Positions 2,662 through 3,146 of a stretch of 5,194 nucleotides of DNA are shown here, one piece after another. The notes below the pieces were generated by a model that was not told the DNA's origin, did no database searches, and saw only the letters and a list, made by a program, of their open reading frames with translations. Source of the DNA: a virus (Duplodnaviria; Heunggongvirae; Uroviricota; Caudoviricetes); the IMG/VR virus record IMGVR_UViG_2534681979_000015, positions 1 to 5,194 of that record. The stretch is one strand, 5' to 3'. Position numbers and translations under genes: made by a program. Numbering within the stretch: the stretch's first letter is position 1; each line of letters opens with the position of its first letter.

Positions 2662-2762
2662 GAATCCTCCCGGTCGGGATAATGTGTGAGTCAGATGAGG
2701 AGCGGGCTGAAGTCCGGAAGTTACAGGACAATGGCAGAAGGAAGACTACAGCCCGAAATACG

Positions 2763-2787
2763 AAAAAGGCCGCGCAGTTGCGCAGCC
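2763..2787 (-). terminator. Intrinsic terminator-like hairpin plus U-run on the minus strand, between stx2B and the esterase gene
   Basis: Minus-strand RNA reads GGCUGCGC-AACU-GCGCGGCC (8-bp stem with one G-U) followed by UUUUU (rc of plus 2763-2767). Confidence 0.45.
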
Positions 2788-2842
2788 TTATGAATCCTGG
2801 TTAAAATGCTTTCGATTATTAAAACGAGTATCTCATGCAATT

Positions 2843-2866
2843 GCCCGAACCCACTCGGGCTTTTTT
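2843..2866 (+). terminator. Rho-independent terminator, plus-strand orientation (opposite to all genes)
   Basis: Perfect 6-bp stem GCCCGA (2843-2848) / TCGGGC (2855-2860), loop ACCCAC, followed by TTTTTT (2861-2866). On the minus strand it is preceded by an A-run and followed by AA, so it is plus-specific. Confidence 0.55.
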
Positions 2867-3146
2867 ACATGTAAAAAGGCCCCTGCTATGAGAGGCCTTG
2901 GTATATGCCTAATCTCTGTATACTGCATGGTGCCGGGTGCCTCCCGGTGAGTTCGGCCTGGTACCACCGAACCCGTGTCGATAATGAATCACAAGCAAGG
3001 ATTTTTCACCAGTCGCCCCTCCACACAGGGGGATTCACCATGCGAAATTTTTTTAACAAATGCTCAGTCTGACAGGCAACTGTCAACTGACTGAATTGTG
3101 ACACAGATTACACTTGTTACCCACATACCACGAATCAGGTTATGCC

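Follow-up and report, generated by a model that had tools for sequence, protein, structure and literature searches.

Two convergent sRNAs encoded 3′ of stx2B, EcOnc02 (renamed AsxR) and EcOnc27, were described by Tree et al. (2014, Mol Cell 55:199; PMC4104026), who placed AsxR "282 bp 3′ and antisense to stx2AB." In that study, Hfq-CRAC, Northern blot, and 5′ RACE experiments were carried out in strain Sakai. AsxR was detected by Northern blotting as a 54-nt RNA that was destabilized without hfq (supplementary table of that study), and 5′ RLM-RACE yielded a primary 5′ end. EcOnc27 was detected as species of ~235 and 247 nt, the 247-nt form being destabilized without hfq. AsxR is an anti-sRNA: in the published mechanism, which we adopt, its 5′ end would pair with the terminator loop of FnrS, leading to destabilization of FnrS and derepression of chuS. 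According to the passages of PMC7873438 and PMC12711010 that cite Gruber and Sperandio (2015), EcOnc27 is the same RNA as sRNA103. It is reported to be structured and Hfq associated, and its overexpression raises fimZ and espA transcript levels. The Rfam family STnc100 has been placed 75 nt downstream of the stx2 operon (PMC12370729) and is related to the sRNA PasD of EPEC (2026 preprint, bioRxiv 10.64898/2026.05.13.724894); a copy designated STnc100_3, at EDL933 position 1353605, was represented by 2403 RNA-Seq reads (Neuhaus et al. 2017).

We analyzed a 5,194-nt stretch of DNA (the window), which is the late region of a Stx2a prophage with all genes on the minus strand (Table 1). The spacer of 485 nt between stx2B and nanS-p, at 2662-3146, has the boundaries given in the first-pass annotation, as set by the stx2B stop codon and the nanS-p start codon. 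We are highly confident that this spacer is the published convergent Hfq-binding sRNA gene pair at the 3′ end of the stx2AB insertion of Stx2a prophages. Identities, positions, structures, conservation, and promoter geometry were determined here, and expression, Hfq binding, and the AsxR-FnrS mechanism are taken from the literature.

Table 1. Features of the window, in minus-strand gene order
Feature	Position	Strand	Remarks
DNA methylase fragment	5190..4789	minus	
Three tRNA genes	4739..4478	minus	
stx2A	4387..3428	minus	
stx2B	3416..3147	minus	Stop codon ends at 3147
stx2B/nanS-p spacer	3146..2662		485 nt
Conserved block beyond the Rfam boundary	3073..3115	minus	Probable EcOnc27 promoter and/or 5′ extension
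STnc100 core (EcOnc27/sRNA103)	2867..3072	minus	Rfam RF02076; multi-helix junction closed by GCAUGGUG/CACCAUGC
EcOnc27/STnc100 terminator	2873..2899	minus	-13.5 kcal/mol; matching inverted repeats
AsxR (EcOnc02) anti-sRNA gene	2813..2866	plus	~17-nt variable 5′ region and conserved 3′ part
AsxR Rho-independent terminator	2843..2866	plus	6-bp G+C-rich stem, 6-nt loop, T6; -11.1 kcal/mol
AsxR promoter	2778..2807	plus	TTGCGC-N18-TAAAAT; -10 box ends 5 nt before the RNA 5′ end
Second minus-strand terminator	2763..2789	minus	10-bp stem and T5; -18.3 kcal/mol
nanS-p 5′ leader	2662..2762	minus	Shine-Dalgarno GGAGG at 2670..2666 and a long hairpin; conserved by locus comparison
nanS-p esterase	2661..751	minus	Start codon at 2661
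Small genes past nanS-p, toward the lysis cassette		minus	

The Rfam scan proposed in the first-pass annotation returned two families above their cut-offs, AsxR (RF02703) and STnc100 (RF02076), with E values that place the signal in this spacer far beyond chance. The AsxR model matched over its full length (1-53) at 2813-2865 of the plus strand with 88.1 bits against a cut-off of 63 (E = 6e-14), and all 53 positions were identical to the consensus. The STnc100 model matched, again in full (1-206), at 3072..2867 of the minus strand with 207.7 bits against a cut-off of 47 (E = 3e-49). The distances to the end of stx2B were 282 bp for the AsxR 3′ end (3147 - 2865), in agreement with the publication, and 75 nt for STnc100 (3147 - 3072). 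The two genes are convergent, and their terminators are arranged tail to tail, one on each side of the palindrome ACATGT (2867-2872). An independent plus-strand sRNA had been deduced previously from an orphan terminator and a weak promoter, with AsxR named as a candidate, and both proposals proved correct. The second sRNA, STnc100/EcOnc27/sRNA103, which is encoded on the minus strand and takes up ~200 to 250 nt of the spacer, had gone unrecognized.

The Sakai spacer, which lies in prophage Sp5, differed from that of the window at 7 positions, none of them inside AsxR or STnc100, and the published Hfq-CRAC, Northern blot, and RACE data were thus obtained on RNAs identical to those encoded here. 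We located the Sakai copy by RNA and probe sequences because the published coordinates, taken from an earlier version of the Sakai record, are numerically out of register with NC_002695.2. The published EcOnc27 Northern probe corresponds to window positions 2894-2928; it has the sense of the plus strand and therefore detects a minus-strand RNA. One of the differences, at window position 2809, falls between the AsxR -10 box and +1, and no difference was detectable in the AsxR RNA itself.

The AsxR gene of the window has the sequence, position, length class, terminator, and convergent partner of the published gene. The RNA would be 54 nt long, within the 51- to 60-nt class, and has its own promoter and Rho-independent terminator. 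The terminator, GCCCGA-ACCCAC-TCGGGC-T6, was found exactly where it had been annotated and forms the AsxR 3′ end. The promoter-like match TTGCGC-N18-TAAAAT was likewise present at 2778-2807, 5 nt upstream of the RACE-mapped 5′ end. It matches the consensus at 8 of 12 positions, which is below the threshold of our promoter scan, and was therefore not listed by that scan. Its geometry is conserved: in six phage loci with differing downstream RNAs, the -35 box TTGCGC is invariant and is followed at the same 18-nt spacing by a -10 box (TAAAAT or TATTAT). This conservation, together with the published RACE end, supports the assignment of 2778-2807 as a weak sigma-70 promoter of AsxR. The best duplex computed between AsxR and K-12 FnrS lay on the FnrS terminator (-9.0 to -10.4 kcal/mol); shuffled 5′ ends did equally well (P = 0.12 to 0.2). 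Since the computed duplex is no better than shuffles, the AsxR-FnrS mechanism rests on the published experiments, in which AsxR-FnrS compensatory mutants were destabilizing (Tree et al. 2014, PMC4104026).

The minus-strand RNA is strongly structured, with a folding z score of -3.9 and none of 200 shuffled sequences folding as well. We compared the window with 7 further phage loci, in which the upstream gene is stx1B, stx2B (other Stx2 phages, including the Stx2c phage 1717), a tRNA, or Q; with the window included, and with multiple copies in one of the loci, the comparison comprised 9 STnc100 copies. Of the 37 pairs in the consensus fold, 6 were changed on both sides with pairing kept. The junction core, GCAUGGUG ... 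CCCCU/GGGG ... GGGUUCGG/CCGAACUC ... CCGGG/CCCGG ... CACCAUGC, was almost invariant. The "several further stem-loops" of the first-pass annotation are real, but most of them are helices of this one minus-strand RNA rather than separate structures. The GTTCGG/CCGAAC hairpin, for example, is an STnc100 helix with compensatory changes; it and the TGACAG/CTGTCA hairpin at the 5′ edge of STnc100 were both confirmed, each displaced by one base from its earlier placement (to 2951-2956/2967-2972 and 3070-3085, the latter reading 3085..3070 on the minus strand).

The EcOnc27 copies of Sakai and the window are identical, and the Rfam model, at 206 nt, falls short of the published RNA size of ~235/247 nt. 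The EcOnc27 5′ end therefore probably lies at ~3100-3115. In the 9 copies, conservation extended ~40 nt upstream of 3072 whether the upstream gene was stx2B, stx1B, a tRNA, or Q, which suggests that EcOnc27 starts ~30 to 45 nt upstream of 3072 or that its promoter lies there. Candidate -10 boxes are TGTAAT (3112..3107) and CACAAT (3100..3095). A promoter scan and the alignment revealed no convincing sigma-70 -35 box before either of them, and EcOnc27 could for that reason instead be processed from the stx2AB 3′ UTR.

Single-nucleotide polymorphisms in EcOnc27 were flagged as predictors of hemolytic-uremic syndrome in a 2025 study (PMC12711010). Window positions ~3058 and 3045-3047, on the minus strand within STnc100, appear to match, within a base, the predictive +90 T/C polymorphism and +103 T deletion of that study. 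At these positions, the alleles of the window are of the Stx2a type (T and TTT), and those of the Stx2c phage 1717 are C and the deletion.

Terminators had been annotated on both strands of the spacer, and both were present; a third, on the minus strand at 2899..2873, had been overlooked and is that of EcOnc27. The minus-strand terminator-like hairpin annotated earlier was recovered at 2789..2766, with its T run extending to 2763. It is the strongest of the three by folding energy (Table 1) and is located downstream of the EcOnc27 terminator and just upstream of nanS-p. It also overlaps the AsxR -35 box, with an A/T tract at -46 to -50 relative to AsxR. Its core was invariant in six loci, and its outer stem pairs were present only in loci of the AsxR/AgvB type. 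From its position and strength, we infer that this terminator backs up that of EcOnc27 and insulates nanS-p and the lysis genes. Any stx2 or EcOnc27 transcription continuing past the first terminator would be stopped at 2789..2763, short of these genes, and Q-modified RNA polymerase coming from the late promoter PR′ would be expected to read through both minus-strand terminators.

Many complete genomes contain the spacer with 100% identity, among them those of several O157:H7 strains and of O104:H4 outbreak strains. Of 5426 complete E. coli genomes, 1189 had related copies (at a median of 3 places per genome), as did 367 phage records, mostly of Stx-converting phages. In the window and all 7 further loci, STnc100 was present in late-operon orientation, after Q or an inserted gene and before nanS-p or the lysis genes. 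Six of the loci have in common the nanS-p leader, the 2763-2789 hairpin, and the AsxR-type -35 and -10 boxes. Within that leader, a minus-strand hairpin at 2703-2714/2744-2755, with 12-nt arms and a 29-nt loop, is conserved in the six loci; in phage YYZ-2008, its arms are perfectly complementary and its loop is shorter. Phage vB_EcoS-640R1 carries tandem STnc100 copies at 131-319, 384-559, and 595-788 (two strong matches and one weak), downstream of Q and a tRNA, indicating that the element can be amplified within a single late region.

As an alternative to a trans-acting sRNA, STnc100/EcOnc27 could work chiefly in cis, as a structured part of the late transcript that influences, for example, its processing or stability or the elongation of transcription into nanS-p and the lysis genes; the free ~235-nt RNA would then be a by-product of termination in lysogens. 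All 9 copies lie between Q or the inserted gene and nanS-p and point the same way as these genes; the junction core hardly changes among them and shows covariation, in contrast to the variable flanking and internal single-stranded segments; and the literature reports no direct EcOnc27 target. However, published data establish that EcOnc27 binds Hfq, that its 247-nt form depends on Hfq, and that its overexpression in trans alters fimZ and espA levels. RIL-seq targets have been published for its EPEC relative PasD, and EcOnc27 ends in its own terminator. We consider the cis-acting account unlikely. A related proposal, which we regard as speculative and to which we give a similarly low probability, is that the STnc100 junction core, beyond any role as a scaffold for a trans-acting sRNA, serves in cis within the late transcript made under Q antitermination or binds a protein other than Hfq, the tail-to-tail pair and the second terminator together acting as a switch. 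If this were true, read-through of the EcOnc27 terminator would generate a full antisense RNA to AsxR and occlude the AsxR promoter, and AsxR output would be coupled to stx2 and late transcription.

It has also been proposed that STnc100 regulates Shiga toxin by pairing with stx2B mRNA through an 11-nt complementarity (PMC12370729). We recovered this pairing, between ACUGAGCAUUU (3068..3058) and stx2B nucleotides 177-187, with one G-U pair and -14.6 kcal/mol, but it is at chance level: some 11-mer of EcOnc27 paired at least as well in 84% of shuffled stx2B sequences, and 8 of 239 windows of the real RNA did as well or better. Moreover, Stx2 output varies 27-fold among isolates with the same EcOnc27 alleles (PMC12711010), and this form of toxin control appears very improbable.

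The first-pass statement that the spacer has no ORF holds for credible genes, although mechanical ORFs of 30 to 55 amino acids are present. That these encode small proteins is the least probable reading of the spacer: hypothetical coding sequences are annotated in YYZ-2008, ASU11, P8983, and phi345, and STnc100_3 has a ribosome-coverage value of 1.51 in EDL933 (Neuhaus et al. 2017), but a Pfam search of the spacer ORFs gave no significant match, the RefSeq records inspected call no gene in the spacer, the ORFs are broken in homologous copies by indels of 1, 4, and 10 nt, none a multiple of three, start codons are not conserved, and the conserved stretches show paired-base covariation.

Two further elements of the window lie outside the spacer. 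The middle tRNA of the ileZ-argN-argO cluster (4568-4656, minus strand) has insertions of 10 and 2 nt in the anticodon arm relative to argN of Sakai and O104:H4, creating a 9-bp stem, CCAGCCTTC/GAAGGCTGG. This variant was missed by the Rfam tRNA model and was called by ARAGORN as an 89-nt tRNA-Lys(CTT). None of the phage records or complete E. coli genomes in the collections searched contained it over its full length; the explanation may be tRNA degeneration, a rare allele, or an error in the sequence. Past the nanS-p stop codon and before the following gene, an orphan plus-strand terminator, CCGCCAGC-N13-GCTGGCGG-CT7, occupies 709-745. The model of the EHEC sRNA Esr41 aligned over its entire length with plus-strand positions 671-745, though weakly (20.7 bits; cut-off, 102). 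The PasA/PasC sRNAs have been placed between nanS-p and the next gene (bioRxiv 10.64898/2026.05.13.724894). The 671-745 element is probably another prophage sRNA, one covered by no Rfam model.

The AsxR/EcOnc27 pair is thus already known and is represented in curated databases, though it is absent from RefSeq annotation. Despite scores far above the Rfam cut-offs, no ncRNA feature for AsxR or STnc100 was found in the RefSeq and GenBank records inspected. Several GenBank phage records carry hypothetical proteins over the two genes instead. The locus is clinically relevant, lying directly after the Shiga toxin 2 genes, and AsxR ties the toxin phage to heme use (published). Our analysis adds a base-level map, the RefSeq annotation gap, the second terminator over the AsxR promoter, and the chance level of the stx2B pairing.

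The AsxR/EcOnc27 pair has the same architecture as AgvB (EcOnc01, RF02702)/EcOnc06 and the other anti-sRNA pairs of Sp3-Sp17: a short plus-strand RNA, variable at its 5′ end and conserved in its 3′ part, convergent with an STnc100-type RNA and positioned between the inserted gene and nanS-p or the lysis genes. AgvB differs in its 5′ seed, which mimics GcvB targets, and its model scored below cut-off on the window (40.9 bits against 56). In each of the six loci that share the promoter, a plus-strand RNA converges on STnc100 and ends in its own terminator; this RNA was of the AsxR/AgvB type in two loci and a longer, unrelated RNA in four. This arrangement of a conserved promoter and a variable RNA is the one described by Tree et al. 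On the STnc100 side, PasD1 and PasD2 of EPEC differ from EcOnc27, by their published description, in seed regions and targets (PMC8550237; bioRxiv 10.64898/2026.05.13.724894).
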